64,000 nt of DNA, taken from contig JALTFO010000048.1 in assembly GCA_027007005.1 (NCBI GenBank), positions 3,342 to 67,341 of the forward strand. Direction: 5' to 3'. Below are positions 9,918 to 47,675 of the stretch, piece by piece (position 1 is the stretch's first letter; each line of letters starts with the position of its first letter). Under the pieces are notes generated by a model. It saw only the letters and a list, made by a program, of their open reading frames with translations, had not been told where the DNA came from and ran no database searches. This stretch comes from Candidatus Bipolaricaulota bacterium. Lineage in GTDB: Bacteria; Bipolaricaulota; Bipolaricaulia; UBA7950; UBA9294. Position numbers and translations under genes: made by a program.

Positions 9918-10007
9918 CCCGAAAGCTCCTTTCCTAATGATCTACGTTTGGCCTGATCTATGGGCAGCTTCTTATCAATACTCATCACCGATCACTCATC
10001 ACGGCTT

Positions 10008-10814
10008 TCACACTCCTGAGTAAGCGGAGAAACCTCCGTCAATCGGGACGATGATGCCATTGACGAACTTTGCTTCATCCGATAACAACCAGTTAACCGT
10101 GCCTATCAGGTCTTCCGGCGTTCCAAACCGCCCCGTTGGCGTATGATCGATGATCTGCCTGCCACGCGAAGTGAGATCATCATTATCGTCTTTCAGGAGG
10201 AAACGGTTCTGCGCAGTGAGGAAGAACCCGGGAGCGATCGCGTTCACCCGGATATTGGGCGAGTACTCCTGCGCCATGTGCACCGCTAACCACTGGGTGA
10301 AGTTGGCCACTGCTGCCTTGGCCGCGGAGTAGGCCGGGATGCGAGTGAGCGGGCGGATTGCATTCATGGAGGCGATGTTGACGATCGCCCCGTTCTTCTG
10401 CTCGGCCAACACTTTGCCAAACGCCTGGCTAGTGAGGAATGTCCCCATGAAGTTCAGGTCAAAGGTGAACCTGATCGCGTCTTCTGGTAGATCGAAGAAC
10501 GGGACCTCTGCGCTCGTCGTCGCCTTGGGGTGATTCCCGCCAGCGCCGTTCACAAGGAAGTCGATATGTCCGAATTCATCGACCGTGCGTCTTGCCGCAT
10601 CGTTTAACTCATCGCGAGAGAGAACGCTCGTCTTGATAAACAGGCCGTCACTCCCCGCTGCACGCACGCGGGAGAGTGTCTCTTGCGCTCTTTTTTCATC
10701 GATATCAAGGAGAACGATCTTAGCTTGTTCTCGCGCCAACCCCACGGCGATCGCCGAGCAGAGGACGCCCGCGCCACCAGTTATCACAGCAACCTTTCCA
10801 TCAAACCTGTTCAT
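10008..10814 (-). CDS. SDR oxidoreductase, fructuronate reductase (UxuB-like)
   Basis: TGGAGVL, NGAGGNHPKATT, YSAAK and APGFF motifs; adjacent to uxaE. Confidence 0.8.
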   Translation of the reverse strand: MNRFDGKVAVITGGAGVLCSAIAVGLAREQAKIVLLDIDEKRAQETLSRVRAAGSDGLFIKTSVLSRDELNDAARRTVDEFGHIDFLVNGAGGNHPKATTSAEVPFFDLPEDAIRFTFDLNFMGTFLTSQAFGKVLAEQKNGAIVNIASMNAIRPLTRIPAYSAAKAAVANFTQWLAVHMAQEYSPNIRVNAIAPGFFLTAQNRFLLKDDNDDLTSRGRQIIDHTPTGRFGTPEDLIGTVNWLLSDEAKFVNGIIVPIDGGFSAYSGV

Positions 10815-12234
10815 CCTTCACCTCCAACCCCAGCAGGTGCCGTCCCAGATGCCGGGCCAGTCCTGCATAATGCTCCTCTTCGTGGCTTGCTAAGAATCTC
10901 TTCAACCTGTTTCCAAATTGGTCAAGAACAGAACCGTAGCCGACGTGCAGCACCTGCCGGCTATCGTGCTTCTCTACAAGTGTCGCAAGTTCATCATCTG
11001 GAACAGTGTCAATGGCTGGGATGCGTACCGGATCAGCGGAGATGTAGTAGCTCTTCTTAGCTGCATCAAACACCGAGAGCGAGAGATCCATGATCTCGCG
11101 GAAGAAGGATGGATCATCACGTGCCACCACCTCGAGTGCTACTAGGTAACTCGTCCCAGCGGTCTTCACGTGCCATTTGCCACGGGTCGCTTGGTGAATG
11201 AGCGGATAAAGGGTGAACTTGTCCGATCCGGAATGGAGACTCAGTCGATACGAACCAAACGAGCGGGCAATAGCAGCGTGGGCGTGAAGCTCCTCTTTGA
11301 ACTGATCTATGTCGCCCCTCCAGTCCACCCCCTTCTCCATCGCTCCAACGAAGCGCGGAGCAAGGCTCGTAAGCTTCACCCCTTTACGGTGCAGTTCACG
11401 AGCTACAAACAGGTGTTGTAGTGGGCTTGTCGGGAAATCGGTCTCATCGACAGAGACCTCGTAGTCAAACCCCTCTGGAAGACGCTCGCTGAGTGCACGG
11501 TACATCTTGGCGGCGTACTCAATGGCCTTGCCATACTTGACCGCGGCGCCAAAGAGGGCATCTTCTGTGAATCGCAGCTCTCCCAATTCTGGAATCAAGA
11601 ACGGACGATCGATGTACTCCTGTCGCAATTCATCGGCCTGGCTGAGGGCGGAGAATCGTTGTCGCAGTTCTTCTCCTGATATTTCCTCCGCTGCCACTAC
11701 GTGCTCTGACGGATCGCAGGTGAAGAACGTGTACCCGATATCCGCGGCCTCAAGCGCATCCTCAACGCGTTTTAGGTGATCGGCGTCCGCCCCGAATCCG
11801 CCCTTGTAGCCTTCCCGAAACGCGCCGAAGATCGCACTTGCCATTACTTCAGAAAACGTTCGTCCGGTACGAGCATTCTCCCGCACCGACTGCTGGGCGA
11901 GGATGGGAAAGACGTTCGTCTTTCCAAGGGCTCTGATGTGCCCTGGCGTGGCCGAACCAAGCCGGTCTCCGAATCCGAAACTGGGCCTATCGGAAGGAAT
12001 ACGTCGTGGCTTGAACCAGGGGACGACACGAGCGAGATCAAGGGCTACTTCAGTAGTTAGAGGATACAGGGCGCCATCGGCAAATGGATCACCTCCTGCA
12101 AAGGGAGATTCCCCATGGACATAGACTCTCTTCTCTCCATCGGAGCGCCTCACCAAGCAGAACAAGGTGTCTCTTCCCTTATAAAGTGATTGTTCAAAGA
12201 CCTCCCACCCTGTAGGAAGATTGCAAGTTGTCAA
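10801..12234 (-). CDS. uxaE: Tagaturonate/fructuronate epimerase
   Basis: GFGDRLG, AQQSVRE, GADADHLK, EVSVDET, SLHSGSDKF and HVKTAGTS motifs. Confidence 0.9.
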   Translation of the reverse strand: MTTCNLPTGWEVFEQSLYKGRDTLFCLVRRSDGEKRVYVHGESPFAGGDPFADGALYPLTTEVALDLARVVPWFKPRRIPSDRPSFGFGDRLGSATPGHIRALGKTNVFPILAQQSVRENARTGRTFSEVMASAIFGAFREGYKGGFGADADHLKRVEDALEAADIGYTFFTCDPSEHVVAAEEISGEELRQRFSALSQADELRQEYIDRPFLIPELGELRFTEDALFGAAVKYGKAIEYAAKMYRALSERLPEGFDYEVSVDETDFPTSPLQHLFVARELHRKGVKLTSLAPRFVGAMEKGVDWRGDIDQFKEELHAHAAIARSFGSYRLSLHSGSDKFTLYPLIHQATRGKWHVKTAGTSYLVALEVVARDDPSFFREIMDLSLSVFDAAKKSYYISADPVRIPAIDTVPDDELATLVEKHDSRQVLHVGYGSVLDQFGNRLKRFLASHEEEHYAGLARHLGRHLLGLEVKDEQV

Positions 12235-13019
12235 TTCTCTCCTCCTTTCAGCCTTTTGGGTACATTGAGAAGCGCATCGTAGTTTGGCTTGGGAAGCGGT
12301 TCGAGGACTAATGCCTGACGATAATCTATCGCATCAAGCGCGTCCCACACCTGCGCGAAATCAAGATGCCCATATCCTGGGATCCAGCGGTTGGAATCGG
12401 CAAGGTGTACGTGGAACAAGCGATGTCCCGCACTACTAAATGCTTCGCCGACATTTGTCTCTTCGATATTGGCGTGGAAGGTGTCGACGAGAAGGCCAAG
12501 GTTGTCTGCGCCAACACGCTTCACTACGTCGATCCCTTCTTCTACTGTATTCACTAGACGGGACTCATAGCGATTGAGCGGTTCGAGGGCGAGCTTGACT
12601 TGCGGAGCATGCTTCGCACACTCGCGTAGCGCCTCAGTGAGCAGTTCAATGTCACCGTCCGCACCACGCAGTGAACCAATGATCACCACTGCGCCAAACC
12701 TTGCAGCGAAGTCCATATGGGCCTCTATCCGGTCGATTGTGCGACGACGAATTTCCTCATCATCGCTTGTAAGGGAAAGCCCCTCCAGACCCGCTGCCTG
12801 CCCGGTGGTTATGGAAAGGAGGCGGAGGCCCTCAGATTCGAGGGCCTCCTTGGCTGTATCGGGATCTATATTGGTGGGATTGGTTATTGCTAGCTCTACC
12901 CCATCGTATCCTGCAGTCTTGACCCGTCTCAGTGCCTGCCGCCAGTCTACCGGCGCAAACGGTGAGAACGGAGTCGGATCCTGCAGAGGAACGATCATCC
13001 CCAATGGCCAGTCGTGCAT
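12231..13019 (-). CDS. iolO: Sugar isomerase/epimerase TIM barrel, IolO-like 5-keto-L-gluconate epimerase
   Basis: GYDGVELA, EPLNRYE, DTFHANIEE and HLADSNR motifs; position after iolM-iolN. Confidence 0.65.
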   Translation of the reverse strand: MHDWPLGMIVPLQDPTPFSPFAPVDWRQALRRVKTAGYDGVELAITNPTNIDPDTAKEALESEGLRLLSITTGQAAGLEGLSLTSDDEEIRRRTIDRIEAHMDFAARFGAVVIIGSLRGADGDIELLTEALRECAKHAPQVKLALEPLNRYESRLVNTVEEGIDVVKRVGADNLGLLVDTFHANIEETNVGEAFSSAGHRLFHVHLADSNRWIPGYGHLDFAQVWDALDAIDYRQALVLEPLPKPNYDALLNVPKRLKGGEN

Positions 13020-14114
13020 CTAGAACCCCCGGCGGGCCAGTGCATAGACTGGTTTCCATCCCGGGGAGCCGGGCTCCTTTAGGTAAGGCTCCATCTCCTC
13101 TTTCGTACGCGTCGTAATCTCCTCTACGGGGGGCAGCTTCCCTGGTGGGAACGCCTCGAGGATCTCATCGTGGACGAGGGTTAGGTAGCGAAGGATCGCG
13201 GCCGTTGGCCGTTTTGCCTTCTTCGGATCTGCGAGGGCTGGCTTTCCTACCGCCCCGTGCGGAACAGCGGCAAGCTCGATAGCGATATGTCCCTCTCCCT
13301 CAGACCATCTGTGTGGACGTCTGTACGGGTCAACGGAGGTGTCAAAGTGCCCGCCTGGCAAGTAACTCTTCCCCTCTCCACCGATTGCGTGGTCCATGTC
13401 GATCATCCCTTTCGGGAAGAGGAGGAGCCCAAGTGATGTCTCCGCCTCAGCAGAGTGGATGAAGTCCGTCTCCCAGCCGGTCCTTTCGCAAGGCACGAAG
13501 AACTCGCGCACGCAACGATGCCAGTCGAAGATCTGATAGATCCCAGGAAGCTGGTAGCGGTACATGAACTCGTGCAGCGCCGATTCGAGCATCCACAGTT
13601 GACCATGGTTGTTGATGATCAACTGCTTGCGGAACCCGTCGTTCCACAGTCCAAGCATAGTATTGATTAGTGTTTCCCGCACCACTTCCTCGGGCATGAT
13701 CACTGTTCCGGGCATCCCCACGTGATGGTAGGGGTGTCCACCGTAGTTAAGTGGGGAGTACACTAGGTTAACCGGCGCTCCCTTCTTTGCCGTATACCTG
13801 CGCACTCCTTCGATGAGCTGCGTCACCTGGAACAGGTCGTGCCCGGAACAGGAGTGATCGCCATGTCGCTCGGTAGAGGCAACGGGAATGATCACAATGT
13901 CATTCTTACGACGGTTCTGCTCCACCTTCGCGCGTGGAGTGGTCTGAATATACGATCCCGGCTTTACCATCTCAGAAGGGGCGGGAATGCCATATTCGGC
14001 TAGGATCTGATCGATCTGTTCTTCGGATGCGTCCCAAACTTCCTTCTTTAACCGCCCGACTTGTGAATCCTCAAACACAACCTGAGGAAGCTCTGTTGTA
14101 AGCCACTTGGCCAT
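13020..14114 (-). CDS. iolN: Creatininase-family 3-dehydro-scyllo-inosose hydrolase
   Basis: PVASTERHG, NNHGQ and HSAEAETS creatininase-like motifs; next to iolM. Confidence 0.8.
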   Translation of the reverse strand: MAKWLTTELPQVVFEDSQVGRLKKEVWDASEEQIDQILAEYGIPAPSEMVKPGSYIQTTPRAKVEQNRRKNDIVIIPVASTERHGDHSCSGHDLFQVTQLIEGVRRYTAKKGAPVNLVYSPLNYGGHPYHHVGMPGTVIMPEEVVRETLINTMLGLWNDGFRKQLIINNHGQLWMLESALHEFMYRYQLPGIYQIFDWHRCVREFFVPCERTGWETDFIHSAEAETSLGLLLFPKGMIDMDHAIGGEGKSYLPGGHFDTSVDPYRRPHRWSEGEGHIAIELAAVPHGAVGKPALADPKKAKRPTAAILRYLTLVHDEILEAFPPGKLPPVEEITTRTKEEMEPYLKEPGSPGWKPVYALARRGF

Positions 14115-14124
14115 TTTTCCTCCT

Positions 14125-15285
14125 TTACGGCTTGATAACGATCTTTCCATCTTCCCGTTTGCACGCCTTCTCGAGAGCGTCAAGCGCCTGATCGAGTGGG
14201 AAGGTGGAAGTGATGATCTTCGAGTTGTCGATAAGGCCAGAGCCCATCATCCGGATGACTGAGGGGAAGATAGCATGACCAGAGTGGCCCTGCGCACCGA
14301 ACAGTTGGCCACGGCGGACCTGAAAGTCCTCCAGGTACATCGGTACCCGCGTCGCCGCGCGACCAATCTGGGCGATCTTTCCGTTGATTGCCAAAGTCTT
14401 TTCCATCTCCGGGATTGTCTTGTCCGGCGCGCCAGCTGCTTCGACCGACATGTCGGCTCCGGCTCCACCGGTAAGATCCATCACCACCTCGGACGGCGAG
14501 ACTTCGAGCGGATTGTACACCGCGTCCGCTCCGACTTTCTTTGCCAATTCCCGCCGCGGCGCGGATACCTCAAAGGAGATCACCTTGGCTGCTCCAGACG
14601 CCTTGGAGAGCTGAATCGCCCCCAGACCGATTGGGCCGGCACCATAGACGACAACGTAGGCACCGGGACGGAATCCACCCGCTCGCTCGAAAATGCCATT
14701 GTAGGCGACACAGGTAGGCTCGGTCGTCGCGGCGACATTCCACGCCGTCTCTTCATCTGAATAGCGTTCAAAGATAGAGTCGATGCTCCAGCACAGTTTT
14801 GCTGGAACGACAATGTATTCCGCCATTGCTCCATCGATCGTAAATCCGATCTCTTCCAGATTAGCACAGTGATTGGGGAAACCATCGCGGCAAGCACGGC
14901 AATAACCGCACCATACCATCTCTTCTGCGGTAACTTTGTCCCCAACCTTGAATTGTTTCCCTTCGGGTCCAGGACCGATCTCTACAATCTCACCGGAGAA
15001 CTCGTGCCCGATAATCGCCGGAAACTTGGTTAGGCCCGGATAGAGAATGTAGTCGTCCGAATCATGCTCGTAGAAATGAATATCCGATCCACAGACCCCA
15101 CACGCGTGAATTTTGAGCAAGACCTCACCCTGGCCGGGTTGAGGCTGTGGAACGTCCTTCATCTCAAGCTTCGGATGACGCCAGACATTGAATCCCGCGA
15201 CCGCTTTTCCTGTTCTCTTCTCGAATTCTGAGACCTGATAACCCTGTCTTGGCTCCCACTGAGCCGAAAGTACTAGTCCCTTCAT
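14125..15285 (-). CDS. iolM: Zn-dependent scyllo-inosose 3-dehydrogenase
   Basis: CGVCGSD, GHEFSG, C-x2-C-x2-C-x7-C and GAGPIG motifs; cluster context. Confidence 0.8.
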   Translation of the reverse strand: MKGLVLSAQWEPRQGYQVSEFEKRTGKAVAGFNVWRHPKLEMKDVPQPQPGQGEVLLKIHACGVCGSDIHFYEHDSDDYILYPGLTKFPAIIGHEFSGEIVEIGPGPEGKQFKVGDKVTAEEMVWCGYCRACRDGFPNHCANLEEIGFTIDGAMAEYIVVPAKLCWSIDSIFERYSDEETAWNVAATTEPTCVAYNGIFERAGGFRPGAYVVVYGAGPIGLGAIQLSKASGAAKVISFEVSAPRRELAKKVGADAVYNPLEVSPSEVVMDLTGGAGADMSVEAAGAPDKTIPEMEKTLAINGKIAQIGRAATRVPMYLEDFQVRRGQLFGAQGHSGHAIFPSVIRMMGSGLIDNSKIITSTFPLDQALDALEKACKREDGKIVIKP

Positions 15286-37802: not shown

Positions 37803-38120
37803 CTAGGAAGTGCTTGAGTATCTAACCCGATCTTCCCAATCAGGCAAGTAGACGGACATCAAGCTCCTGAAAAGCTTCCCATGATTCTGAACCCTTAGAT
37901 GCAGTAGCTCATGCACGATTACGTATTCCTGGAACTCCCGGCGTTGCCTAAGGAGCCCCTCGCTGAAGGTTACAGTCCTATTTGGAGAACACGAAGCCCA
38001 CTTGTTCTTCATCTTCTGCACCCGAATCTGAGCCGGTTTGACATTGAGTGTGTCCGCCCAGTCGCGAACGGCTTTCTTGAAGGTGTTCTTGTTGGAGAAT
38101 CCGCTTTCTTGCTTGGTCAT
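37803..38120 (-). CDS. Short YgjP/DUF45-like zinc metallohydrolase
   Basis: KWASCS and EYVIVHELLHLRVQNHG (HExxH); typical position after hsdR. Confidence 0.8.
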   Translation of the reverse strand: MTKQESGFSNKNTFKKAVRDWADTLNVKPAQIRVQKMKNKWASCSPNRTVTFSEGLLRQRREFQEYVIVHELLHLRVQNHGKLFRSLMSVYLPDWEDRVRYSSTS

Positions 38121-38181
38121 GGCATGGAACAGATCGGGTAACGCAGAACAACTGATGGATGTACATAGAATACCACGATAG

Positions 38182-41097
38182 TCACCTGCTTTCCACACGG
38201 AGCATCGCATCAGCCAGTAGTACCATGCGATCCTTCCCCACCAGAGGGAGCAGCATCCTGTAAATCTCGGCCTTGAGCTGACGGAGTTCTGCCGCATTCT
38301 CTCTATAGTTCGGGAATCGCTCAAAGATACCTTTCATCGTTGCCGCAATGCTATCCGATTCCGCCACCCCTTCCTTCTTGAGTACCCAGTAGAGGGAGAA
38401 CGTGGTTACATCGAACCCCATCTCCGATTGCTGACGGCGTGCCTCTACGATCTCTCGAATCACAAGCTCGATTCTCCGCAAGGAGTCTTCCGTCGTTATC
38501 TGGCGGTTATCGAAGGCTTCAAGGATTGCCTCGGCCCGGTCACCGATCGGCTTAAGGTATGGGCTTGAATCCTCCTCTTCGATGACGGCCCTTCGAATGC
38601 TGTTAACCAGGTTGATTACCTTCGCTTTGTCCGACCCACCAAAGTCCTTGATTGCCCGAAGTGTGTTCTCGTCGATCTTCACCGCGGGGAGTGTCATGTC
38701 AAGTCCGTAGCTCTCGGCCTTCTCCCTGACCAGTTGCCGGGTCTTGCGGGCGACATCGCTGTATAGGGTCGACCTTTTTCTGAAGGCATTTTGAATGATC
38801 CGATACAAGATAGAGAGAGAACCGAAATCGTCAATGGAGTCCCGCAGATCAGGCGAAGGCGAGAGGATCTCATAGAGCGTTTCGATCTGCTTGTAGAGGT
38901 GATAGAAGGCCTCCCGCTTGTCTTGATCGGTGAACGCCTCGATCGCTTCTTCAATCCCTCTATCGTCCAGCAATTCTCTGCTCAGGATGATGTATTCTCG
39001 TGCCGGACCCGCCATCATCTCCTTGAACTTATTCAGGAGAAGATCGAGATCCTCGATGACGCCACTGACAACATCGGAATCAAACGCCAGCGCTTTCTCA
39101 AGTTTCTCAAAGATCCCTATGAAATCGACTACGAGCCCGCAAGGCTTGCGGCTCTCTTGGCCCCATTCATAGGGACGATTGACCCGCGCGATGGCCTGGA
39201 GGAGCACATGATCCCGCATCGGCTTGTCGAGGTACATGCAGTAGAGAATGGGCGCATCGAAGCCGGTGAGGAGCTTGTCGGTGACGATGAAGATCTTCGG
39301 CAGCGTATCTGGCTTCGGAAACAGCTTACGCGCCTTCTTTTCCGCATCCGGGCTCACCTGATGACGATACACGAGAGGGTACTTCTCGCTGTCGTGCTGC
39401 GCGGATGTGTAAATCGGAAGGGAGTATTCAGGAGGGAGAACCTTGTCCAGCGCCTCCTTATACAGCGCGCAGGCCTCACGATCCACCGCCACCAAAAACG
39501 CCTTGTATCCAAGGGGTTCAATGTTCTCTTGAAAGTGTTTCGCCACGAATGCTGCAACCTTCTCGACTCGATCCCGCGACTTGAGGAACGTCTTCAGGCG
39601 CATCGCATGATCTAGGATCCTGTTCAACTCGTCTACGTCGCTGATCCCCTCGGCCTCCGCCAGATTCAGGAACTCCTCTTCAAGTTGTTGGCGTGGGACT
39701 CTGATCTCATTTGGCGCAAGGACGTATTTTAGTGGGACAGTCGTACCATCTTCGATCGACTCCACAATCGAATACTTGTCTAGATACCCTTGCTCATCTT
39801 CCTTGCCGAAGATCTTGAACGTTCCCTTGCCGTATGCCGTCTTGTCGATCGGCGTACCGGTGAACCCGATCAATGTGGCGTTCGGGAGGGCGCCAACGAG
39901 GTAATTGCCGAGATCGCCACCTGTTGTTCTGTGTGCTTCGTCAATTAGGACGAAGATGTTCTCACGGGTGTTGATGCCCTTCGGAATTCCGTCAAACTTG
40001 TGAATCATCGAAATAATCAACCCGCGAAAGTCCGAGGCAAGGAGTTCGCGCAGATGCTTCTTGCTAGTGGCCTGCTCGATCTTGATATCGTGCGAATGCA
40101 TTTCGCCAAGCAATCGCTCAACCCAACCTCCAAGCTGTCCCTCCAATTCATTCCGGTCGATCATTAGAATTACGGTGGCCTTACCAAACGTCCCTTTGTC
40201 CTGAAGGATCATCCGGGCCGCCGTGATCATGGTGAATGTCTTGCCTGACCCTTGAGTGTGCCAAATCAGGCCGGTTGCTTTCGCCTTGTCGGCGCATCGA
40301 TCGAGGATCTTCTCCACCGCCCGGGTTTGGTGTTGGCGCAGGATCGTCTTCTGCAGTTCATCTTCCTTGTAGAAGAAGAGGACCCATTCCTTGAGCATGG
40401 TCAAAAACCGCTGACGGTCGAAGAACCGTTTGACCTTGTTCTCGTAGTTCCCGGATTCCTCGTTTCGCCAGTTGAACAGGTTCTTCCGATCCAGGTTCCA
40501 CGTAGCCCCGTAGTAGAAATCGAGAAGGTTAGTGATGTCGAACACCTGCGGAGCGGTCAACATCTCAGGCGTCTCGTGGTGGTACTCCCGGATTTGAGTC
40601 ATCGGCTTTTCGATTCCCTTTGGTCTCTGTGCACTCTTAGTCTCTACGATAGCGACCGGAATCCCATTGATCAGGAACATCACATCTGCTCGGTTGGTCT
40701 CCTGGCCATTCGTGTACTGCCACTCGTCGGTTACGTGGAAGACGTTGCGCTCAGAATTGGCGAAGTCGACCAGTATCACATTCCGCTCCCGCTTCTCGTT
40801 TTGGTCATAGATGCTCTTCTCTCCACGGAGCCACGCGAGGATCTCCGCGTTCCCCTCAATCGTATTAGGGACGGACTCGATACTGCGGACGATCGCATCG
40901 ACGTTTTCGACCGTGATTAGTTGTGGATTTAGCTCAATGAGCCTCTCTTCTAGTACACGCCTGAACAGCATTCCTCCTACGCCTTTCCGCAACGAAAGAG
41001 CTTCCGACGTAGGGACATACGTCCAACCGATCTCCTCCGCGTAGCGGATGAGGGGGTTCTGAACCGTATCGTTTTCTGTTCCTGGGTGGGTTGCCAT
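38182..41097 (-). CDS. hsdR: Type I restriction endonuclease subunit R
   Basis: ADVMFLINGIPVAIVETK nuclease motif; HTQGSGKT, DEAH, GFTGTP, LLTGFDAP and QAIARVNR; RBS GAGGAG before ATG 41097. Confidence 0.95.
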   Translation of the reverse strand: MATHPGTENDTVQNPLIRYAEEIGWTYVPTSEALSLRKGVGGMLFRRVLEERLIELNPQLITVENVDAIVRSIESVPNTIEGNAEILAWLRGEKSIYDQNEKRERNVILVDFANSERNVFHVTDEWQYTNGQETNRADVMFLINGIPVAIVETKSAQRPKGIEKPMTQIREYHHETPEMLTAPQVFDITNLLDFYYGATWNLDRKNLFNWRNEESGNYENKVKRFFDRQRFLTMLKEWVLFFYKEDELQKTILRQHQTRAVEKILDRCADKAKATGLIWHTQGSGKTFTMITAARMILQDKGTFGKATVILMIDRNELEGQLGGWVERLLGEMHSHDIKIEQATSKKHLRELLASDFRGLIISMIHKFDGIPKGINTRENIFVLIDEAHRTTGGDLGNYLVGALPNATLIGFTGTPIDKTAYGKGTFKIFGKEDEQGYLDKYSIVESIEDGTTVPLKYVLAPNEIRVPRQQLEEEFLNLAEAEGISDVDELNRILDHAMRLKTFLKSRDRVEKVAAFVAKHFQENIEPLGYKAFLVAVDREACALYKEALDKVLPPEYSLPIYTSAQHDSEKYPLVYRHQVSPDAEKKARKLFPKPDTLPKIFIVTDKLLTGFDAPILYCMYLDKPMRDHVLLQAIARVNRPYEWGQESRKPCGLVVDFIGIFEKLEKALAFDSDVVSGVIEDLDLLLNKFKEMMAGPAREYIILSRELLDDRGIEEAIEAFTDQDKREAFYHLYKQIETLYEILSPSPDLRDSIDDFGSLSILYRIIQNAFRKRSTLYSDVARKTRQLVREKAESYGLDMTLPAVKIDENTLRAIKDFGGSDKAKVINLVNSIRRAVIEEEDSSPYLKPIGDRAEAILEAFDNRQITTEDSLRRIELVIREIVEARRQQSEMGFDVTTFSLYWVLKKEGVAESDSIAATMKGIFERFPNYRENAAELRQLKAEIYRMLLPLVGKDRMVLLADAMLRVESR

Positions 41098-41116
41098 TGT
41101 CTCCTCTTTTGCATAC

Positions 41117-41575
41117 CTAATCGTTATACCCCTTGTCTTTGTTGTCCATAGGGTGCTCCTGGTTGCTGCCACACCACTTACCTGTGGCAAGCCAGATTTC
41201 GTAGTGCAACAACCAAAGGGACGTCCACGGCACAATTGTTCTGGCAATGGGCATTGTGGAATCCCATTCGTTGTACTTGTATCGGAACAAGCACAGTTCC
41301 TTGGCGGAAAACACGTGAGGAATCCTGCTGCCATTCCTGGATACAATCTCGGGCGAAACTACCGACACCACCGGTCTCTGTTTCAAGCGGTATTTGATCT
41401 TCACAGTGTATTTCTCACTCAATGGACTTGGCTTCAATTGACCTACCCATGTTAGTACGATATGCTTATTGAACGTGACGTCTGAGTCTGGAAATACACG
41501 TTTCAACCCCGCTGCTTGCACAGCAAGTGGCAGTGTCTTCAGTCTTTTTCGCAGGTATGACTTCTTATTTCCCAT
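41117..41575 (-). CDS. Prokaryotic E2-like protein of short type II CBASS
   Basis: IPHVF...LCLF...EW...TIVPWTSLWLLHYEIWLATGKWCG pattern; overlaps CD-NTase stop. Confidence 0.72.
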   Translation of the reverse strand: MGNKKSYLRKRLKTLPLAVQAAGLKRVFPDSDVTFNKHIVLTWVGQLKPSPLSEKYTVKIKYRLKQRPVVSVVSPEIVSRNGSRIPHVFSAKELCLFRYKYNEWDSTMPIARTIVPWTSLWLLHYEIWLATGKWCGSNQEHPMDNKDKGYND

Positions 41576-42737
41576 ACCAAGTGTTCGGTTTTACTGTGGC
41601 TCCGACAGTTCCTAAGAGACCAGTCTTCGGGGCCATCCGCAGCTGACCGTCCCGTTGTTGCTTATCCATAACGTTTCCGTATTTCTCGAAAGCGTGCCTA
41701 GCAATTTCTGCTCCTAGCGCGAGAGACAGACTATCCGAGATCTTTTGCAGACCAGTCTCCTTGATCGCGCTTGAGAAGTCTGTCTCAACTTGCTGGAGCC
41801 ATTCAAAGAAACGCTTGGCTCTCTGAGATTCTTTTTTCCACTTGTCAGCAAAGTTCTCCTTTGGGTTAATCGGGTTTGGCACCCAGTATTCGCCATTTCT
41901 GGTCTTGATACCGTCACGTAGCTTTGCCGTTAGGGCTATCAACGCCTCAAGGATGTCGGTTTCGCCGTTGTATGCGTTTGCAGCAAGCGTTGTGGTGATT
42001 ATGGAAATTGGTTTATCGTCGCGATTCCCTTGATAGTGTACGTCGCGATGGCGTTTCAAGATCTGAATAGCTCTTCGAAGAGGAGTAGGCACGCGCTCTA
42101 GGGGAATCTCTTCTACGTGAACCTCCACAGCCTTTGCCATCATTTCTCGGCGTTCCAACAGCAGCGTCTTTTGCTGATCGTTGAACCAGTTGGCGTACCC
42201 TTTGGGGTTACTGTGTTGCCACTTCGGGAGTTCCGTATCTGTGATGATAAGTGCATCATCGAGATCCCGGAGGTTGTACTCAGCAGCCTTATCGTCTGGG
42301 AGCGCAGGCAGGACGTCCATATGGAACTGCCCCTTGTAGTCCAGTGTCCAACATCGGCGACCAGGAACAAGCTCTGGAACTTCACTACCCTCGGCAGCTA
42401 GACGTTGAAGATAGCGCTTCAGCTGGTCCTCTAAGTCAGCTTTCAATTCTTCCTGAGCCGTGCTCTCTTTCTGAATCTCGCGACGATAGACAAGGTCTAC
42501 GTCGTATGCATCTTCATCTTTTACGGGCCGAACAGCGGTACCTAGTCTCAGAGACCCCTGAGGATAGATCTCCGCATCAGACTGGTAGTGTTCGAGATGG
42601 TCTTCCTTCAACCAGTCACCCAGATCCATGTACTTTCTTCGGACCTCTCGATAGACATCCTCAGGAATATCGAGTTCCTCCCCAACATAACCAATGATGT
42701 CCGCTAACTGCATTCCTTTCTGCTGATCAACATCCAT
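41565..42737 (-). CDS. CD-NTase (cGAS/DncV-like cyclase), probably clade G
   Basis: YPQGSLRLGTAVRP..YDVDLV, FHMDVLPA, SNPKGY, LKRHRD, PISIIITT and NPINPKENFADKW motifs; ends NTWYGK. Confidence 0.9.
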   Translation of the reverse strand: MDVDQQKGMQLADIIGYVGEELDIPEDVYREVRRKYMDLGDWLKEDHLEHYQSDAEIYPQGSLRLGTAVRPVKDEDAYDVDLVYRREIQKESTAQEELKADLEDQLKRYLQRLAAEGSEVPELVPGRRCWTLDYKGQFHMDVLPALPDDKAAEYNLRDLDDALIITDTELPKWQHSNPKGYANWFNDQQKTLLLERREMMAKAVEVHVEEIPLERVPTPLRRAIQILKRHRDVHYQGNRDDKPISIITTTLAANAYNGETDILEALIALTAKLRDGIKTRNGEYWVPNPINPKENFADKWKKESQRAKRFFEWLQQVETDFSSAIKETGLQKISDSLSLALGAEIARHAFEKYGNVMDKQQRDGQLRMAPKTGLLGTVGATVKPNTWYGK

Positions 42738-42750
42738 TTTCCTACCCCCT

Positions 42751-43728
42751 CTACTTATCATTTTCCTGGTCTGTTTCATCCGTCAAGGTATAGATGGGCT
42801 CGTATGGCGATGCCTTATGACTCAGAAACATGTTACTAACCTCATTCACGGCGTTCCGCGCTTCCGTTCTTCCTATGCCTTCCAGTTCGAGGGACATCTT
42901 GTCGAGCGCATAGTGCCCGCCCAGAATGGGATTGATTCGGAGGAAGCGTTCCTTCCCGAGAATGTGAAGGCACTGATTCTCAGCAGCACAGCTTTGACCA
43001 GCCATCATGAACTCCAGCACCTTGCTCCGCCATGTCCACAGTCCTCCGGTGATGTGCTTACTCATTGAGGTAATGGCTTGCCGAGTCGTACCGATACTGA
43101 ACATCGCTATTGACCCTTGACTTTGGTTTAAGTAACCAAGCGCCTCAGCTAGAGCCACCATTGAAGGGTTGTTTGCCCACACGCCGCCGTCGATGAGGCG
43201 TACACCTGTGTCACTTATCGATGCAGGGAAGTACGTTGGCGCGGACGCGGTTGCGAGAGCAATGTTCATTGCCAGCTCCTTGTAGTCCGTCTTGAGTCGC
43301 TCGTGATGAGGAGTCTTGTATAAATGGACATCACCCCTGACGGAGTCATAAGAGGGAATGATCAAACGCTTTGTGCTTTCGCCGAGCCGTCTGTCTCCGA
43401 AGTAGTCCTGAAGAGCTTGGCGAAGGGGCTCTGCCGGGTACTTGCGCCGAAAGACCCACTTCACGCTGCCTAGAGCCCGAGTCCATCGACTCTGTGCCGG
43501 GAAGATGTCCTTGCCTCGTTCCTTGTAGAAGCCCAATATCTCCTTGGGGCTGAAGCCTAGTCCCAGAGCTATTGCTATGATACCCCCTGCAGAGGTGCCG
43601 GCGATCAGATCAAAATGGTCCACGATCCTCTTGCGTGTATTTTCTTCCAGTGCAGCCAGGAAGGAAGCCGTGAATATCCCCTTCAGTCCGCCGCCATCGA
43701 GAGAGAGAATTTGAAAGCGCTCGGTCAT
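42751..43728 (-). CDS. capV: Patatin-like phospholipase CBASS effector
   Basis: DGGGLKG, GTSAG, SAPTYF and DGGVWANNP motifs; adjacent to CD-NTase. Confidence 0.88.
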   Translation of the reverse strand: MTERFQILSLDGGGLKGIFTASFLAALEENTRKRIVDHFDLIAGTSAGGIIAIALGLGFSPKEILGFYKERGKDIFPAQSRWTRALGSVKWVFRRKYPAEPLRQALQDYFGDRRLGESTKRLIIPSYDSVRGDVHLYKTPHHERLKTDYKELAMNIALATASAPTYFPASISDTGVRLIDGGVWANNPSMVALAEALGYLNQSQGSIAMFSIGTTRQAITSMSKHITGGLWTWRSKVLEFMMAGQSCAAENQCLHILGKERFLRINPILGGHYALDKMSLELEGIGRTEARNAVNEVSNMFLSHKASPYEPIYTLTDETDQENDK

Positions 43729-44993
43729 AATTCCACCTCGCTCACATCGATGTCGAGATCAACTGTGCGAATCTCACCGGTCATCAGCTTGTCCAACGTC
43801 GTTTTGAAGAGGTCTTGAAGACCGGATTTCTTGGATTCGTGGAAACTTAGCTTTGCATCGACTGTGTCCAAGGAGCAGGCGATCTCCTCCTGTTCTTTCT
43901 TTGTGCTTGGGACAGGGAATTCCAGCGGATCCACATTCTTCTTGTTGAGCTGTGGTGTTGGACCCAGGTCCTGCAACATCGTGAGGTCGAAAGTCAGGAA
44001 CCAATAGTAAAGGTAAGGTAGTACGATCGAATCATTGGGGACCACAGCAATCAGGTTTGGATCGAGCAGCGTCCATTGCGTCGTTACGCGTTTCTTGTTT
44101 GTCGCGATTGCAGCTCCCCTCTTTGGGAAGATAACCGAGTTAGGTGGCACAGCCTTCTTTTGAGCGACCACCTTTGGTAGCCTGATTTCGATGTTTGAAC
44201 AGAGGATGTCGCGATCATTGCCGGCAAGATTCATGTCCGAGACCTTGATCGCATGAACCAAAACATCTTCTTTGCTTCCAGTATTCCTCGCTTCCAGATC
44301 ACGAAATGCGACTGTTGAGCTCCGGACCTGGGAACAGGACCGAATAGTTATGACCTTCCAACTCTCCGGAATCTCGCCGATCTCGGTCATCTTTGTCTTT
44401 TCGCCACGGGTGCCGTGGGTGAAGAGGTACTGCATAGTAGATTTCTTGAGGTCACGGAGTGACTGAATGATATTCTCCTGCATCTCAACTGCCTGTTGGA
44501 TCTTCAACAATACCGCTGCGATCCTCTTTTGTTCCAAAAGTGGGGGAAGAGCGATCTCCTGTTTTAGGACATCTTTGTCGGTAACAGCAGGATAGCTCGC
44601 ACCGTGCTGTGAGTCAGCGATAGCCTTGTTTATTCCATCTGAGAGGAGAAGGAAGTACAGAAATTCAGGCACTGCCATCTTCCTGTTGGCACGGACAACG
44701 CAGAATGCAGTGGATGCGATGTGATCATCGTATTCTGGAGGGACTAGCGCTATTCTCTGGAGTGTCGGTCGAATGGTTGCATAGAGCACATCTCTCGCAT
44801 GAACGATCTTCCTTGCCCTCCCAGGCGCGGTCGTTCCAGTCACTACTTGCGGAGAAGTGATCTTGAAAAGATCGTTTGATACAGCCGAGACATCGATATA
44901 GTAGAAATTGCCCCGTGGCTCTGACCGCGGCTTCCACTGGCTCGTCTTCAGACAGGCGTTCCTCAATGCCATGTTTTTCCACTCGTTCTTCAT
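43725..44993 (-). CDS. hsdS: Type I RM specificity subunit
   Basis: Two TRDs, each followed by a conserved helix (LPPLLEQKRIA; VPSTKKEQEEIA); central IGEIPESW; ends KLMTGEIR. Confidence 0.9.
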   Translation of the reverse strand: MKNEWKNMALRNACLKTSQWKPRSEPRGNFYYIDVSAVSNDLFKITSPQVVTGTTAPGRARKIVHARDVLYATIRPTLQRIALVPPEYDDHIASTAFCVVRANRKMAVPEFLYFLLLSDGINKAIADSQHGASYPAVTDKDVLKQEIALPPLLEQKRIAAVLLKIQQAVEMQENIIQSLRDLKKSTMQYLFTHGTRGEKTKMTEIGEIPESWKVITIRSCSQVRSSTVAFRDLEARNTGSKEDVLVHAIKVSDMNLAGNDRDILCSNIEIRLPKVVAQKKAVPPNSVIFPKRGAAIATNKKRVTTQWTLLDPNLIAVVPNDSIVLPYLYYWFLTFDLTMLQDLGPTPQLNKKNVDPLEFPVPSTKKEQEEIACSLDTVDAKLSFHESKKSGLQDLFKTTLDKLMTGEIRTVDLDIDVSEVEL

Positions 44994-45027
44994 CTTCTCA
45001 AATCTCTCTGTGCCCTCCGCAATTTCA

Positions 45028-45654
45028 TCACGGCTTCTTCCTTCGATAGTCGTTCGGATCGATACAGGTATCATAGGTGGCGCGATCGACGCGAATCCAA
45101 TCTGTTCTGTTGATGCCACGGCGATTGCGGGATGTCGGACTGAACGGAAAAGCGCATCCCACTTTGATCCAACGATCATCTCTCCGAGCGATCTTCCGGA
45201 TTTCGTCGGCCACTTCGCTCAGGTCCTGATCCTGGCTGAAGATCACGGCAACGTCATACTGGTTCTCCAAGGCACCGCGCACCACATCAAGGGCAAGGCG
45301 AATGTCAATTCCTTTCTCTCTGCCGACCAATGCTGTTGTTAGTGTGCCGTCAGAGGCTTTTATTGACTGGTTTGAGTAGCGTAAAGGGCGGGAATAGGTG
45401 TGGATATTGCGCGTTCCCATAGCGGAGAGCTTGGCAACCCAAAAATGATTCCGTTTTGGATCAATATCCGGATTAGGAATCCCGGTATAGAAGCAAATAC
45501 CGGTCAAGTCCCAGCTCTGCTGAACACAGATGGTCTCGGCTAGTTGTCGGATGTTGTAGTTCGGATAGGGATAACCGAACGCTTCCTTGACGGCGTTAAA
45601 CAAGTTCTGTCCATCAATGTAAGCGATTGTGCGTTTGGAGGTGGGCTCTTTCAT
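45028..45654 (-). CDS. NYN-domain (PIN-like, LabA/DUF88) RNase
   Basis: YIDGQNL, EKGIDIRLALD and SQDQDL acidic motifs; RBS AGGAGG. Confidence 0.88.
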   Translation of the reverse strand: MKEPTSKRTIAYIDGQNLFNAVKEAFGYPYPNYNIRQLAETICVQQSWDLTGICFYTGIPNPDIDPKRNHFWVAKLSAMGTRNIHTYSRPLRYSNQSIKASDGTLTTALVGREKGIDIRLALDVVRGALENQYDVAVIFSQDQDLSEVADEIRKIARRDDRWIKVGCAFPFSPTSRNRRGINRTDWIRVDRATYDTCIDPNDYRRKKP

Positions 45655-45671
45655 AGCTCCACCTCCTGCGA

Positions 45672-45725
45672 ACAAAGAATAACCCCGCCAGAGGTCCGAA
45701 AACTGATCCAGCGGGGAGCAATTAC
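45672..45725 (-). ncRNA. Putative short structured leader/sRNA ending in an intrinsic terminator, upstream of NYN
   Basis: CCCCGCTGGA-TCAG-TTTT-CGGA-CC-TCTGGCGGGG followed by TTATTCTTT, directly downstream of a consensus promoter. Confidence 0.45.
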
Positions 45726-45731
45726 ATCGCT

Positions 45732-45760
45732 ATAATACAACGAGACGTCACAGGTGTCAA
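45732..45760 (-). promoter_or_regulatory. Internal sigma70 promoter between hsdM and NYN
   Basis: TTGACA(45760-55)-N17-TATTAT(45737-32). Confidence 0.7.
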
Positions 45761-45778
45761 CAGCCAAAGTCCATTGTC

Positions 45779-47620
45779 TCATTCCGTTTCCTCTCCGAAA
45801 CCAAGCTTGTTGAAGACTTTTCGCAGTTCGACATCGATCTCCTCGGCTTTCTTCTCAAGACCATCAGGACCCCAAAGCTCATCTAGAATCTCGGGAATTG
45901 GCCGGTAAACCTCCTTCTCGCTTGTGTCCACGTAGCCTGAGGGAGAGAGGTTGTAGTCGTTCTCCGCTGCCTCTTCGTTAGTGATGACCTTGACAAACCG
46001 TTCGATGTCCTGCCCTTTGATGAATCCCTGAACGATCTTTTGAATATTCTCGTCGGGGATGTAGTTCTTCGGACGTCCCTTCTTAAATTCGCGGCTTGCG
46101 TTCACGAGCACAATCTTATCTTTACGCTGCGGAAGCTTGTTCCGATTGAGCAGGATGATGATCCCAGCGGCGCTAGTGTTGTAGAATAGGTTGTCCGGCA
46201 GAAGAATGACGCCCTCAATGAGGTCATGGTCGACGAACCATTTACGGATAATCTTCTCCTTATCCTCGTTCTGGCTTCCGCTCCCCCTAGTGACAGCCCC
46301 AGTGTCCAAGACAACAGCCGCTCGTCCCGTAGGCTTGAGCGAGGCGAGAGTATGCTGAATCCAGGCCCAGTCTGCTTTGCCAGATGTTATTCCACCATGT
46401 TCCTCAAACCGTCCGAATTCATCACTCTCGTAGATCGCTCGATTGTAGGCTTGGTTCCACATGGGATTCGCAACGACGATGTCAAACTTTCTGAGGCTTG
46501 TGTCTGAATCCCGAAACTTCGGGTTGGTCATCGAATTGCCGCGCACGATCTTGCCTTCCATGTCGTGAATGACCATATTCATCCGAGCGATGGCGTAGCT
46601 TGAACCGTTTATCTCTTGCCCGTAAAGCTTAAGCGGGCGATTGACCTTCAGCTCGCGTTCCTGAAGGGCCAGTTCGCACTTGATCAATAATCCTGCCGAC
46701 CCACACGCATAGTCATATACTTCTTCACCCTGAGCCGGCCGAACCATATGGGCCATGAGCCAACCGACTTCGGTTGGCGTGAAAAATTCACCGGCGCTCT
46801 GTCCCTGCCCTTCGGCAAACTTTCGGAGCAGGTACTCATAACAGCGTCCGAGGAAGTCCGGCTCCACGTCGTAGAGCCCGAGTCGGTAGCGGGGATCAGA
46901 GAGTGCCTCCATCACCCCTGCCAGTGCCGAGTCGCTGATCTCTCGCTCCCCAGTGCGGGTTTCGTTGAAGTCTACGGTGTCGATGACCCCGCTGAGATCT
47001 TTGGAACGATCCCCGGCGTTGGCTTTAACGATGGCTCTCATCGTGAGGGTGAGCTGCTCGCCAAGTGTCTTCGGCCTCTGTCCTTCGTGCCAATCAAATA
47101 CCTCCCGGCCGCTGACAACCGGCCACCGCGCCTCGGGCGGAATGTAGAACCGCACCAGGCTCTTGTCGGCTTCAATGATCTCGAGAGCCGTCTCACGGTC
47201 GCCGTATGTCTCGGCAAGGCGTTCGACTTCATCCTCAAAGACATCCGAGAGGCGTTTGACGAAAAGAAGAGGCAGGATGTAGTCCTTGAACTTAGGGGCA
47301 TCCTTCTCGCCCCGGATCGAGCAGGCGGCACTCCAGAGCATCTGCTCCATCAACTTCGTGGTGAGCACATCTTTTCTCAAGACCCTGTGACGACGCTTGG
47401 GGATACCAAGATCGAGAGCTGGTCTCCGTTCTTTAAGGCCAACATCTGCAACAAGCTCGCTGATCGCCTGCTTGGCCCTGCCTCGTGGTGTAGTTCGCCC
47501 GTTCTCCCAGCGATTCAATGTGGAGAAAGCTACGCCAAGCCTAGCGGCAAGTTCTTCCTGGCTTAGCTCAAGCTTATCTCTTAATTGTTTTAGAATCTCA
47601 GGGATGTCTCTATCGTCCAT
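45779..47620 (-). CDS. hsdM: Type I RM methyltransferase with N-terminal XRE HTH fusion
   Basis: LSQEELAARLGVAFSTLNRWENG HTH; then LWSAAC, GEFFTP, DYACGSAG, YGQE, ANPMW and NLFYNT. Confidence 0.93.
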   Translation of the reverse strand: MDDRDIPEILKQLRDKLELSQEELAARLGVAFSTLNRWENGRTTPRGRAKQAISELVADVGLKERRPALDLGIPKRRHRVLRKDVLTTKLMEQMLWSAACSIRGEKDAPKFKDYILPLLFVKRLSDVFEDEVERLAETYGDRETALEIIEADKSLVRFYIPPEARWPVVSGREVFDWHEGQRPKTLGEQLTLTMRAIVKANAGDRSKDLSGVIDTVDFNETRTGEREISDSALAGVMEALSDPRYRLGLYDVEPDFLGRCYEYLLRKFAEGQGQSAGEFFTPTEVGWLMAHMVRPAQGEEVYDYACGSAGLLIKCELALQERELKVNRPLKLYGQEINGSSYAIARMNMVIHDMEGKIVRGNSMTNPKFRDSDTSLRKFDIVVANPMWNQAYNRAIYESDEFGRFEEHGGITSGKADWAWIQHTLASLKPTGRAAVVLDTGAVTRGSGSQNEDKEKIIRKWFVDHDLIEGVILLPDNLFYNTSAAGIIILLNRNKLPQRKDKIVLVNASREFKKGRPKNYIPDENIQKIVQGFIKGQDIERFVKVITNEEAAENDYNLSPSGYVDTSEKEVYRPIPEILDELWGPDGLEKKAEEIDVELRKVFNKLGFGEETE

Positions 47621-47644
47621 GATCTCCTTTGGAACATAACGCTA

Positions 47645-47675
47645 TAATGCTATAGCATTACAATCACATTGTCAA
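47645..47675 (-). promoter_or_regulatory. hsdM promoter with a perfect 16-bp palindrome over the -10
   Basis: TTGACA(47675-70)-N17-TAGCAT(47652-47); palindrome TAATGCTATAGCATTA at 47645-47660. Confidence 0.65.

Follow-up and report, generated by a model that had tools for sequence, protein, structure and literature searches.

A complete E2-type CBASS nested in the exchangeable hsdS-hsdR slot of a type I restriction-modification operon

Why should a complete anti-phage signalling system lie inside the operon of another defence system, and does such an arrangement mean that the two are functionally connected? The question is raised by a stretch of 64,000 nucleotides from a Candidatus Bipolaricaulota bacterium (GenBank assembly GCA_027007005.1, contig JALTFO010000048.1, positions 3,342 to 67,341; hereafter ‘the window’, to which all unprefixed coordinates refer), where the genes of a cyclic-oligonucleotide-based anti-phage signalling system (CBASS) sit between hsdS and hsdR of a type I restriction-modification (RM) operon. 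An earlier note, made from the sequence alone, had read the gene order on the minus strand as helix-turn-helix (HTH)-hsdM, NYN, hsdS, capV, CD-NTase, E2, hsdR and a YgjP-like gene; Pfam and PADLOC profiles confirm this order, with the CBASS effector, cyclase and E2 all matched. Our answer, which we hold to be probable, is that this E2-type cassette occupies an exchangeable slot between hsdS and hsdR, and forms a co-transcribed and co-transferred second layer of defence that acts independently of the RM enzyme.

The gene content predicts a type I RM system, with HsdM, HsdS (two target-recognition halves) and HsdR (nuclease plus superfamily 2 motor) all full length. The 613-amino acid (aa) product of hsdM (45779-47620; minus strand, as for every feature of the operon given below) carries an N-terminal XRE-type HTH domain (Pfam HTH_3, 3e-12) ahead of HsdM_N (6e-22) and N6_Mtase (1e-90), and matches PADLOC MTase_I at 1e-151. 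The true start of hsdS (43725-44993, 422 aa; Pfam Methylase_S in two stretches; PADLOC Specificity_I, 3e-47) is the ATG at 44993, in frame with a longer open reading frame, within which the profile matches begin at about residue 62. At the far side of the cassette, hsdR (38182-41097, 971 aa) matches HSDR_N (4e-27), SWI2_SNF2 (5.5e-58), ResIII and T1R_D3-like in Pfam, and REase_I (9e-97) in PADLOC. Between them lie capV (42751-43728; 325 aa), encoding a patatin-like phospholipase effector (PADLOC PDLC00757, 2.8e-104), the CD-NTase gene (41565-42737; 390 aa; PDLC00780, 4.4e-123; Pfam DncV-like_NTFase and SMODS), and the gene for an E2-only CBASS accessory protein (41117-41575; 152 aa; PDLC00876, 3e-47).

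Reading down the minus strand, the ATG of capV (43728-43726) overlaps the TGA of hsdS (43727-43725) as ATGA, a spacing of −4 nucleotides (nt); 13 nt then separate the capV TAG (42753-42751) from the CD-NTase ATG at 42737, which is preceded by a GGGGG ribosome-binding site; the E2 ATG at 41575 falls within the 3′ end of the CD-NTase gene (TAA 41567-41565), giving an overlap of 11 nt; and 19 nt lead from the E2 TAG (41119-41117) to the hsdR ATG at 41097, with GAGGAG ahead of it. Direct reading of the sequence thereby bears out the junctions given in the earlier note, together with its remark that there is no intergenic room for a promoter belonging to CBASS or hsdR alone; with spacings of −4, 13, −11 and 19 nt, no space remains for a further minus-strand gene between hsdS and hsdR. 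Gene content and overlapping or close junctions together describe a complete CBASS that is translationally chained inside the RM operon. Nor is the order an artefact of assembly, since L015 and L118, which were assembled independently, show hsdS-capV-CD-NTase-E2-hsdR too, and L114, L115 and L016 each show part of it.

How the cassette came to be there is seen most directly from its nearest relatives. A search with HsdR against 41 related genomes returned two close loci, G010 (same genus) and G015 (another genus). G010 has the same chromosomal neighbourhood as the window, with the HD and PepM3 genes followed by hsdM (89% identical), NYN (88%), hsdS, hsdR (88%) and YgjP; at the DNA level the two are ~83% identical from 50188 to 45006 and from 41082 to 36056 of the window, with homology ending exactly at the hsdS stop (43725) and resuming 15 nt inside hsdR. 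In place of CBASS, G010 has a HEC-01-like AAA_21 ATPase with a small partner, then a 597-aa SWIM/DUF6880 protein (PDC-S62); G015 has a Schlafen/AlbA_2 gene followed by a SWIM/DUF6880 gene; and the more distant G030 (HsdR 47%) has a 249-aa protein of unknown family. The closest hsd loci, with HsdM and HsdR 87-89% identical to those of the window, thus hold unrelated cargo, which the earlier note had named as an outcome that would speak against its proposal. The interval between hsdS and hsdR is an exchangeable cargo slot, swapped by recombination in the conserved hsdS 3′ and hsdR 5′ ends; its cargo lies on the same strand as, and between, the hsd genes, and its content varies among homologous hosts, as for an embedded defence gene. 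Because the cargo of this interval varies, the slot fits the view of the hsdS-hsdR site as a potential recombination hotspot, put forward for another type I RM locus (PMC12255303). CBASS looks to have been replaced by other cargo in G010 and G015.

Two further marks of exchange are found at the hsdR end of the slot: a 44-nt copy of the hsdR 5′ end inside the G010 cargo (L011:10845-10888), just upstream of the SWIM/DUF6880 (PDC-S62) gene, and a remnant of the hsdR 5′ end (aa 6-41) in the G015 cargo (L012:12654-12752), again just upstream of the SWIM/DUF6880 gene; at the protein level, residues 6-41 of HsdR are recognisable in G010 as well. Such copies were probably left behind when a cassette was inserted through recombination at the start of hsdR. 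A SWIM/DUF6880 gene of the same type also stands between E2 and hsdR in L114, a metagenome contig. The interval between hsdM and hsdS is a second variable slot (seen in the window, L011, L012, L013, L015 and L016), occupied by NYN (HEC-09-like) in the window and G010, by PDDEXK_3 and a RhuM fragment in G015, by RhuM and KilA-N in G030, by DUF1016/YhcG in L015 and by ORF6N in L016.

Exchange in close relatives is accompanied by long retention elsewhere. The earlier note would have been contradicted by free-standing nearest homologues of the CBASS genes; instead L114, L115, L015, L016 and L118 are all nested in hsd loci. L114 resembles the window throughout (CapV 85%, CD-NTase 78%, E2 72%, HsdR 83%); L115 reads hsdS-capV-cdn-E2, at which point its contig stops; the complete order hsdM ... 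hsdS-capV-cdn-E2-hsdR-YgjP is present in L118 and in L015 (labelled Lentisphaerota); and L016 (Phycisphaerales) follows it as far as its contig end. For HsdR and CD-NTase, respectively, identity to the window is 83 and 78% in L114, 70 and 62% in L015, 70 and 62% in L014, and 61 and 53% in L118. As the two fall together, CBASS looks to be long-standing cargo within the window’s hsd family, travelling with this operon between phyla, and the composite is evidently old and moves between phyla as a unit. The window itself has a PepM3 neighbour 85% identical to Candidatus Bipolaricaulota proteins, and a SMODS match is found in 6 of 184 genomes of its phylum.

Co-divergence holds within this hsd family only. 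The comparison of HsdR with CD-NTase that the earlier note had proposed, made here through identities, is favourable in the window’s own family and weak over all linked loci; a strict co-phylogeny over the latter was tried and rejected (Spearman 0.18 for HsdR, with 83 of 2000 permutations as high, and 0.15 for HsdM, with 123 of 2000). Within the composite, CapV is 81-85% identical to that of the window in L114 and L115 and 45% in L015, L016 and L118, whose cyclases are at 53-62%, values that suggest an effector replacement within a conserved composite.

Is the cassette intact? By its predicted proteins it is an intact E2-type (type II-short) CBASS, a class defined by an E2 that comes without E1 domain or JAB peptidase (PMC12948482). 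Clade G, according to the same source, accounts for 73.65% of E2-CBASS cyclases. The CD-NTase matches three solved relatives, among them PDB 9woo_A (1.7e-61) and SmCdnG (8hsb_A, 1.8e-36); its catalytic residues G61, S62, D79, D81 and D141 are those found invariant in 39 homologues; and its AlphaFold2 model is confident (mean predicted local distance difference test (pLDDT) score 90.9, predicted template-modelling (pTM) score 0.90). The chain ends in ...NTWYGK, with a near-terminal G389 that is conserved in at least 90% of the 39 homologues and is a putative site of E2 linkage. E2 aligns to SmE2 (8hsb_B, 6e-20) along an IPH...LCLF stretch, and its Cys and His are present. CapV matches CapV/patatin chains in the PDB, including the solved, cyclic GMP-AMP-activated CapV, at 1e-40 to 3e-28, and contains GGGLKG, GTSAG and DGG, which we take to be its patatin motifs; it is thus predicted to be a nucleotide-activated effector.

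This bears on whether CBASS might be a non-functional remnant carried by a working RM system, or both systems be inactive. Such decay does occur among the relatives: in L014 (Kiritimatiellia; 9208-15144) the composite has lost the first ~60 codons of capV together with hsdM and hsdS, housekeeping genes (peptidase M16 and AsmA-like) lie upstream, and cdn, E2, hsdR and YgjP are still open. The window, however, has capV, CD-NTase and E2 at full length, the catalytic residues, patatin motifs and aligned E2 Cys/His in place, a confident cyclase model and full-length hsd genes throughout, and we find decay scarcely credible here.

From where might such a chained set of genes be transcribed? The operon has two true gaps only, one upstream of hsdM and one of 124 nt between hsdM and NYN, and the two best sigma-70-like sites of the minus strand lie exactly in these: P1 (47647-47675), upstream of HTH-hsdM, reads TTGACA-17-TAGCAT and has 10 of 12 consensus matches, and P2 (45732-45760), between hsdM and NYN, reads TTGACA-17-TATTAT and, at 11 of 12, is the best in the region; both are putative promoters. 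Across the hsdM-NYN gap, identity to G010 is 93%, compared with ~83% for the flanking genes, and this higher conservation favours a functional promoter or leader within it. Between P2 and NYN lies a hairpin (45683-45716), CCCCGC...GCGGGG followed by a T-rich run, whose stems are invariant in G010; as the sole differences from G010 sit in the loop, covariation is absent. The candidate that this hairpin is a structured element was rejected, its folding energy being ordinary (z = -0.57, with 58 of 200 shuffles folding equally well).

At P1, a perfect palindrome, ATGCTATAGCAT (47647-47658), which is unique in the window, overlaps the -10 hexamer. All 12 bases are conserved in G010, and the TTGACA hexamer together with GCTATAGCAT (10 of the 12 palindrome bases) is conserved in both G010 and G015; by analogy with RptR or C proteins, the palindrome may serve as an autoregulatory operator for the HsdM-fused XRE-type HTH domain. 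The window contains exactly two copies of the 9-mer ATTATAGCG, one at P1 and one at P2 (the latter at 45728-45736, minus strand). As a shared operator it was rejected: the P2 copy is not conserved in G010, and copies with one mismatch are at chance (6 found, 7.6 expected).

Co-transcription has to be set against pure hitch-hiking, in which the cassette merely came to rest at a recombination hotspot, draws its expression from promoters concealed within the upstream coding sequence, and owes no regulatory meaning to its position. Promoters within coding sequence may indeed be an alternative source of CBASS and hsdR transcription; weak promoter-like matches (9 of 12) stand before capV and before the CD-NTase gene, the slot accepts unrelated cargo, the slot between hsdM and hsdS is equally variable, and the hsdS-hsdR site has been named a potential recombination hotspot (PMC12255303). 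These internal 9/12 matches are, however, at chance level, and start-stop overlaps with hsd genes recur in independently formed composites, which counts against hitch-hiking because such overlaps are unexpected of cargo that keeps its own expression signals. Of the genes embedded in defence operons, 96.7% are oriented like their host system, and co-regulation has been suggested (Payne et al., bioRxiv 10.1101/2024.01.29.577857). On balance we regard hitch-hiking as unlikely.

How often does CBASS sit beside hsd genes? We surveyed the best 80 of 571 genome loci and the best 80 of 552 metagenome loci encoding relatives of the cyclase, annotating them with hidden Markov models (HMMs) grown from the window’s proteins and applying one rule for hsd linkage. 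Linkage of CBASS to hsd genes, of which the synteny named in the earlier note is one form, is recurrent: 24 of the 80 genome loci have same-strand hsd genes beside CBASS (16 on both sides, 5 upstream only, 3 downstream only), 5 have opposite-strand hsd genes only and 51 have none, and the 80 metagenome loci divide into 22 (12 on both sides, 2 upstream only, 8 downstream only), 2 and 56, respectively. The 16 two-sided genome loci include L026, which reads hsdR-M-S-CBASS and then a second system, and L039, where hsdS is only a fragment at the contig edge; the 51 hsd-free genome loci comprise 21 on short contigs and 30 flanked by 5 kb or more on each side.

Linked cassettes lie between hsdM and hsdS, between hsdS and hsdR, or directly after hsdR-hsdM-hsdS, mostly with overlapping junctions; each is a complete E2-type CBASS whose effector is either CapV or an HNH-SAVED nuclease and whose E2 is 150 aa, 250 aa or fused. 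The hsd-linked state requires at least 14 changes (gains or losses) on the CD-NTase tree (60 informative rows), and the HsdR proteins of linked loci fall into at least 11 clusters at 38% identity, one of which has 22 members.

As a control, we read 78 regions with a Pfam SMODS match from Planctomycetota, Thermodesulfobacteriota and Bacteroidota (401 genomes each), to which three linked loci belong; we excluded the hits of these three seeds themselves, along with six Bacteroidota hits of low score, and three second hits (one in Planctomycetota, two in Bacteroidota) fell in regions already taken. Nesting between hsd genes is seen in 7 of these 78 unselected loci (0/18, 3/21 and 4/39 in the order of phyla given above). 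That nesting is commoner among E2-type loci than among the other SMODS loci was tried as a candidate, and the difference is not significant (5/30 versus 2/48; Fisher p = 0.10); by the looser measure of any hsd gene within flanks of ~10 kb the counts are 11/30 and 6/48 (Fisher p = 0.022), a contrast that is suggestive only, because the classes come from our own HMMs, built from the first locus set, and from manual reading, and because relatives are not independent.

With these counts in hand we can weigh the proposal, made in the earlier note, that the cyclase guards the RM complex. In such a PrrC-like arrangement CD-NTase/E2 would be held silent by, or would monitor, HsdMSR and fire on anti-restriction inhibition or a restriction signal, so that CBASS would be the dedicated back-up of this RM system. 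It could claim for itself the tight translational chaining to hsdS and hsdR, retention of the composite down to 61% HsdR identity, recurrence of nesting in many hsd families, the any-hsd contrast between E2-type and other SMODS loci, and a slot shared with embedded abortive-infection cargo, namely DarTG2 (PMC12255303). The guard role nevertheless finds no support. No gene of the locus has a PrrC-like ATPase or anticodon-nuclease domain by Pfam and PADLOC profiles; most cyclase relatives (51/80 and 56/80) show no same-strand hsd gene, whereas PrrC occurs almost solely as an embedded gene (Payne et al., bioRxiv 10.1101/2024.01.29.577857), a near-obligate trait that relatives with 24/80 and 22/80 same-strand linked loci do not share; the nearest hsd loci do without CBASS; HsdR and CD-NTase identities are weakly correlated over linked loci; the nested-only contrast is not significant; and a related E2-CBASS is effective in E. 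coli by itself (PMC12948482). We consider a guard very unlikely. What stands of the earlier note’s layered RM and CBASS system is thus a plausible co-expression and a composite conserved in other phyla.

Another form of connection would be a functional wiring of the E2-CBASS to type I RM, in the manner of PrrC but by signalling: the cyclase and E2 would sense the state of the Hsd complex, whether its inhibition by anti-restriction proteins or some product of its restriction or translocation activity, and turn it into a cyclic-nucleotide death signal. Such wiring would explain why CBASS has been captured repeatedly (the changes on the tree, the HsdR clusters, both slots and the overlapping start and stop codons), and still we think it quite unlikely.

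Against an independent second layer there are, in turn, several points to be weighed. The recurrence of nesting, with its state changes, HsdR clusters and E2-type bias, hints at more than passive linkage, and an independent layer covers it solely through selection for co-regulation and co-transfer. Co-transcription of the cassette with the hsd genes is itself something that we infer from the sequence, for which one search of sequencing runs listed no RNA run; promoter-like matches in the region as a whole are at chance level (7 found, 7.2 expected), and the hairpin and T-run between P2 and NYN could terminate or attenuate transcription. A last point concerns the trigger of the cyclase. A 2026 preprint describes large (~30 aa), surface-exposed, disordered loops in clade A and G CD-NTases as tripwires cut by phage prohead proteases, and assigns the protease-sensing CD-NTases to clades A, G and part of D (PMC12991175). 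Such a loop is not seen in the AlphaFold2 model of our CD-NTase, where no segment of three or more residues has a pLDDT below 50 (a proxy only for disorder) and the lowest internal blocks of 10 residues score 82-84.

Independence of CBASS from RM is plausible all the same, because most of the surveyed relatives (51/80 and 56/80) show no same-strand hsd gene and because SmCdnG/SmE2 is reported to work alone (PMC12948482). In the account that we favour, of an independent second layer, a single polycistronic message, NYN-hsdS-capV-cdn-E2-hsdR-ygjP, would begin between hsdM and NYN, at the conserved promoter-like site there, possibly supplemented by read-through from the hsdM promoter, with overlapping start and stop codons coupling translation. 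Going by its family, the RM enzyme would attack unmodified incoming DNA early; CBASS, again judged by its families, would follow as an independent, later layer, in which the CD-NTase, handled at its C-terminal glycine by E2, would make a cyclic nucleotide that activates the CapV phospholipase and so leads to the death of the infected cell. Other families of type I RM have acquired comparable composites repeatedly. Most likely, then, two complementary layers are regulated and transferred together through nesting, which does not show a sensing link between them.

Both ingredients of the arrangement are already known, the embedding of defence genes in type I RM operons as much as E2-CBASS. What this locus adds is a clean natural cassette exchange, seen in two congeneric genomes and resolved to the base, with its breakpoints at the stop of hsdS and the start of hsdR, and the long-term retention of an hsd and CBASS composite across phyla. 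The recurrence of the arrangement is, to our minds, the most interesting result: about one in four of the nearest cyclase relatives is hsd-linked and 7 of 78 unselected SMODS loci are nested, which suggests that in environmental phyla type I RM operons often house CBASS, above all the E2-type. Should this hold under a phylogenetically corrected census, it would make a testable case for asking whether the fusion of early DNA-targeting and late abortive layers in one operon is selected for co-regulation and co-transfer, and whether there is cross-talk between RM and CBASS; the RM context would be one hypothesis for the trigger of E2-CBASS cyclases that have no reported protease-sensing loop.

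Of the remaining genes, that for the NYN-domain protein (45028-45654, 208 aa; Pfam NYN, 4.5e-9; PADLOC HEC-09, 4e-14) is the cargo of the hsdM-hsdS slot. The short YgjP-like metallopeptidase gene (37803-38324; Pfam YgjP-like, 6e-28, covering profile positions 113-201 of 207 only) has an uncertain start, its longest open reading frame running into the hsdR 3′ end; a gene of this family lies 3′ of hsdR in related loci, with or without CBASS. In the window’s hsd family it encodes at most 173 aa, corresponding to the C-terminal half of the Pfam profile only, and forms of 232-263 aa are found in another RM family, that of the 22-member HsdR cluster. Peptidase M3 (PepM3) and HD-domain genes lie 5′ of the hsd operon, and on its 3′ side plus-strand genes begin.

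The 22-member cluster (L028, L033, L034, L048, L050, L054, L063, L067, L091, L139, L143, L147, L159, L190, L195, L204, L206, L209, L216, L239, L246 and L248) is one type I RM family and a major carrier of embedded cargo, which includes E2-CBASS, PD-Lambda-3_B/Hypoth_Ymh, a 1260-aa PD-Lambda-4_A-like protein and others; where the flanks are visible, it has a half-HsdS with a single target-recognition domain upstream of hsdM and a full-length YgjP after hsdR. L195 (4831-6132) has a 433-aa SMODS and AGS_C protein alone between hsdS and hsdR of this family, with no separate effector gene recognised; L216 has an open frame of 433 aa (9777-11078) with a similarly strong SMODS match at the same position; and L215 and L217 contain free-standing proteins of similar length and SMODS score.

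How, finally, does the locus compare with systems already described? The hsdS-hsdR interval is where PrrC sits in EcoprrI. PrrC is an RM guardian embedded in a type IC locus and triggered by inhibition of its RM partner (PMC12707154); like our locus, it places an abortive-infection module within the operon of a type I RM system, and to both one can apply the idea that restriction is backed by a second line. It differs in that the window’s CBASS has no sequence or domain relationship to it and belongs to a clade that is mostly free-standing.

Defence genes embedded on the same strand in type I RM, BREX, DISARM and Hma operons have been presented as a general rule (Payne et al., bioRxiv 10.1101/2024.01.29.577857). 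The window’s NYN protein matches the HEC-09 model of that survey, and cargo of its relatives matches the HEC-01, PDC-S02, PDC-S05, PDC-S22 and PDC-S62 models; CBASS has no occurrence in the survey’s main text, taken apart from its figures and supplementary tables. Among literature full texts, as distinct from subscription papers and supplements, we found no description of CBASS inside an hsd operon.

For the cassette itself the counterpart is SmCdnG-SmE2 of Serratia marcescens, a CBASS that alone protects E. coli B against T4 (PMC12948482). The two have in common a CD-NTase with a stand-alone E2, free of E1 and JAB, a near-terminal glycine (WYGK here) and a nucleotide-activated effector; the window’s version has CapV as effector and a 390-aa cyclase without a large low-confidence loop in its AlphaFold2 model, and differs in lying inside an hsd operon without promoter space of its own.

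TgvAB, from the type I RM cluster of Vibrio cholerae VPI-2 (PMC11411939), and BrxU of BREX are likewise second defence systems in RM-type operons and cover phages that the host system misses; both are type IV restriction enzymes directed against modified DNA, unlike the window’s cassette neither signalling nor abortive-infection systems. In DarTG2 the cargo is of another family, and its RptR repressor is a separate 9-kDa protein, whereas the regulator here would be an HsdM-fused domain with a predicted role in regulation. The two loci nonetheless agree in slot and strand, DarTG2 also lying between hsdS and hsdR as a toxin-type second system in a type I RM operon, and in being headed by an HTH regulator, which in the DarTG2 locus binds palindromic promoter repeats (PMC12255303) and here would have before it a palindrome that overlaps the -10 hexamer.

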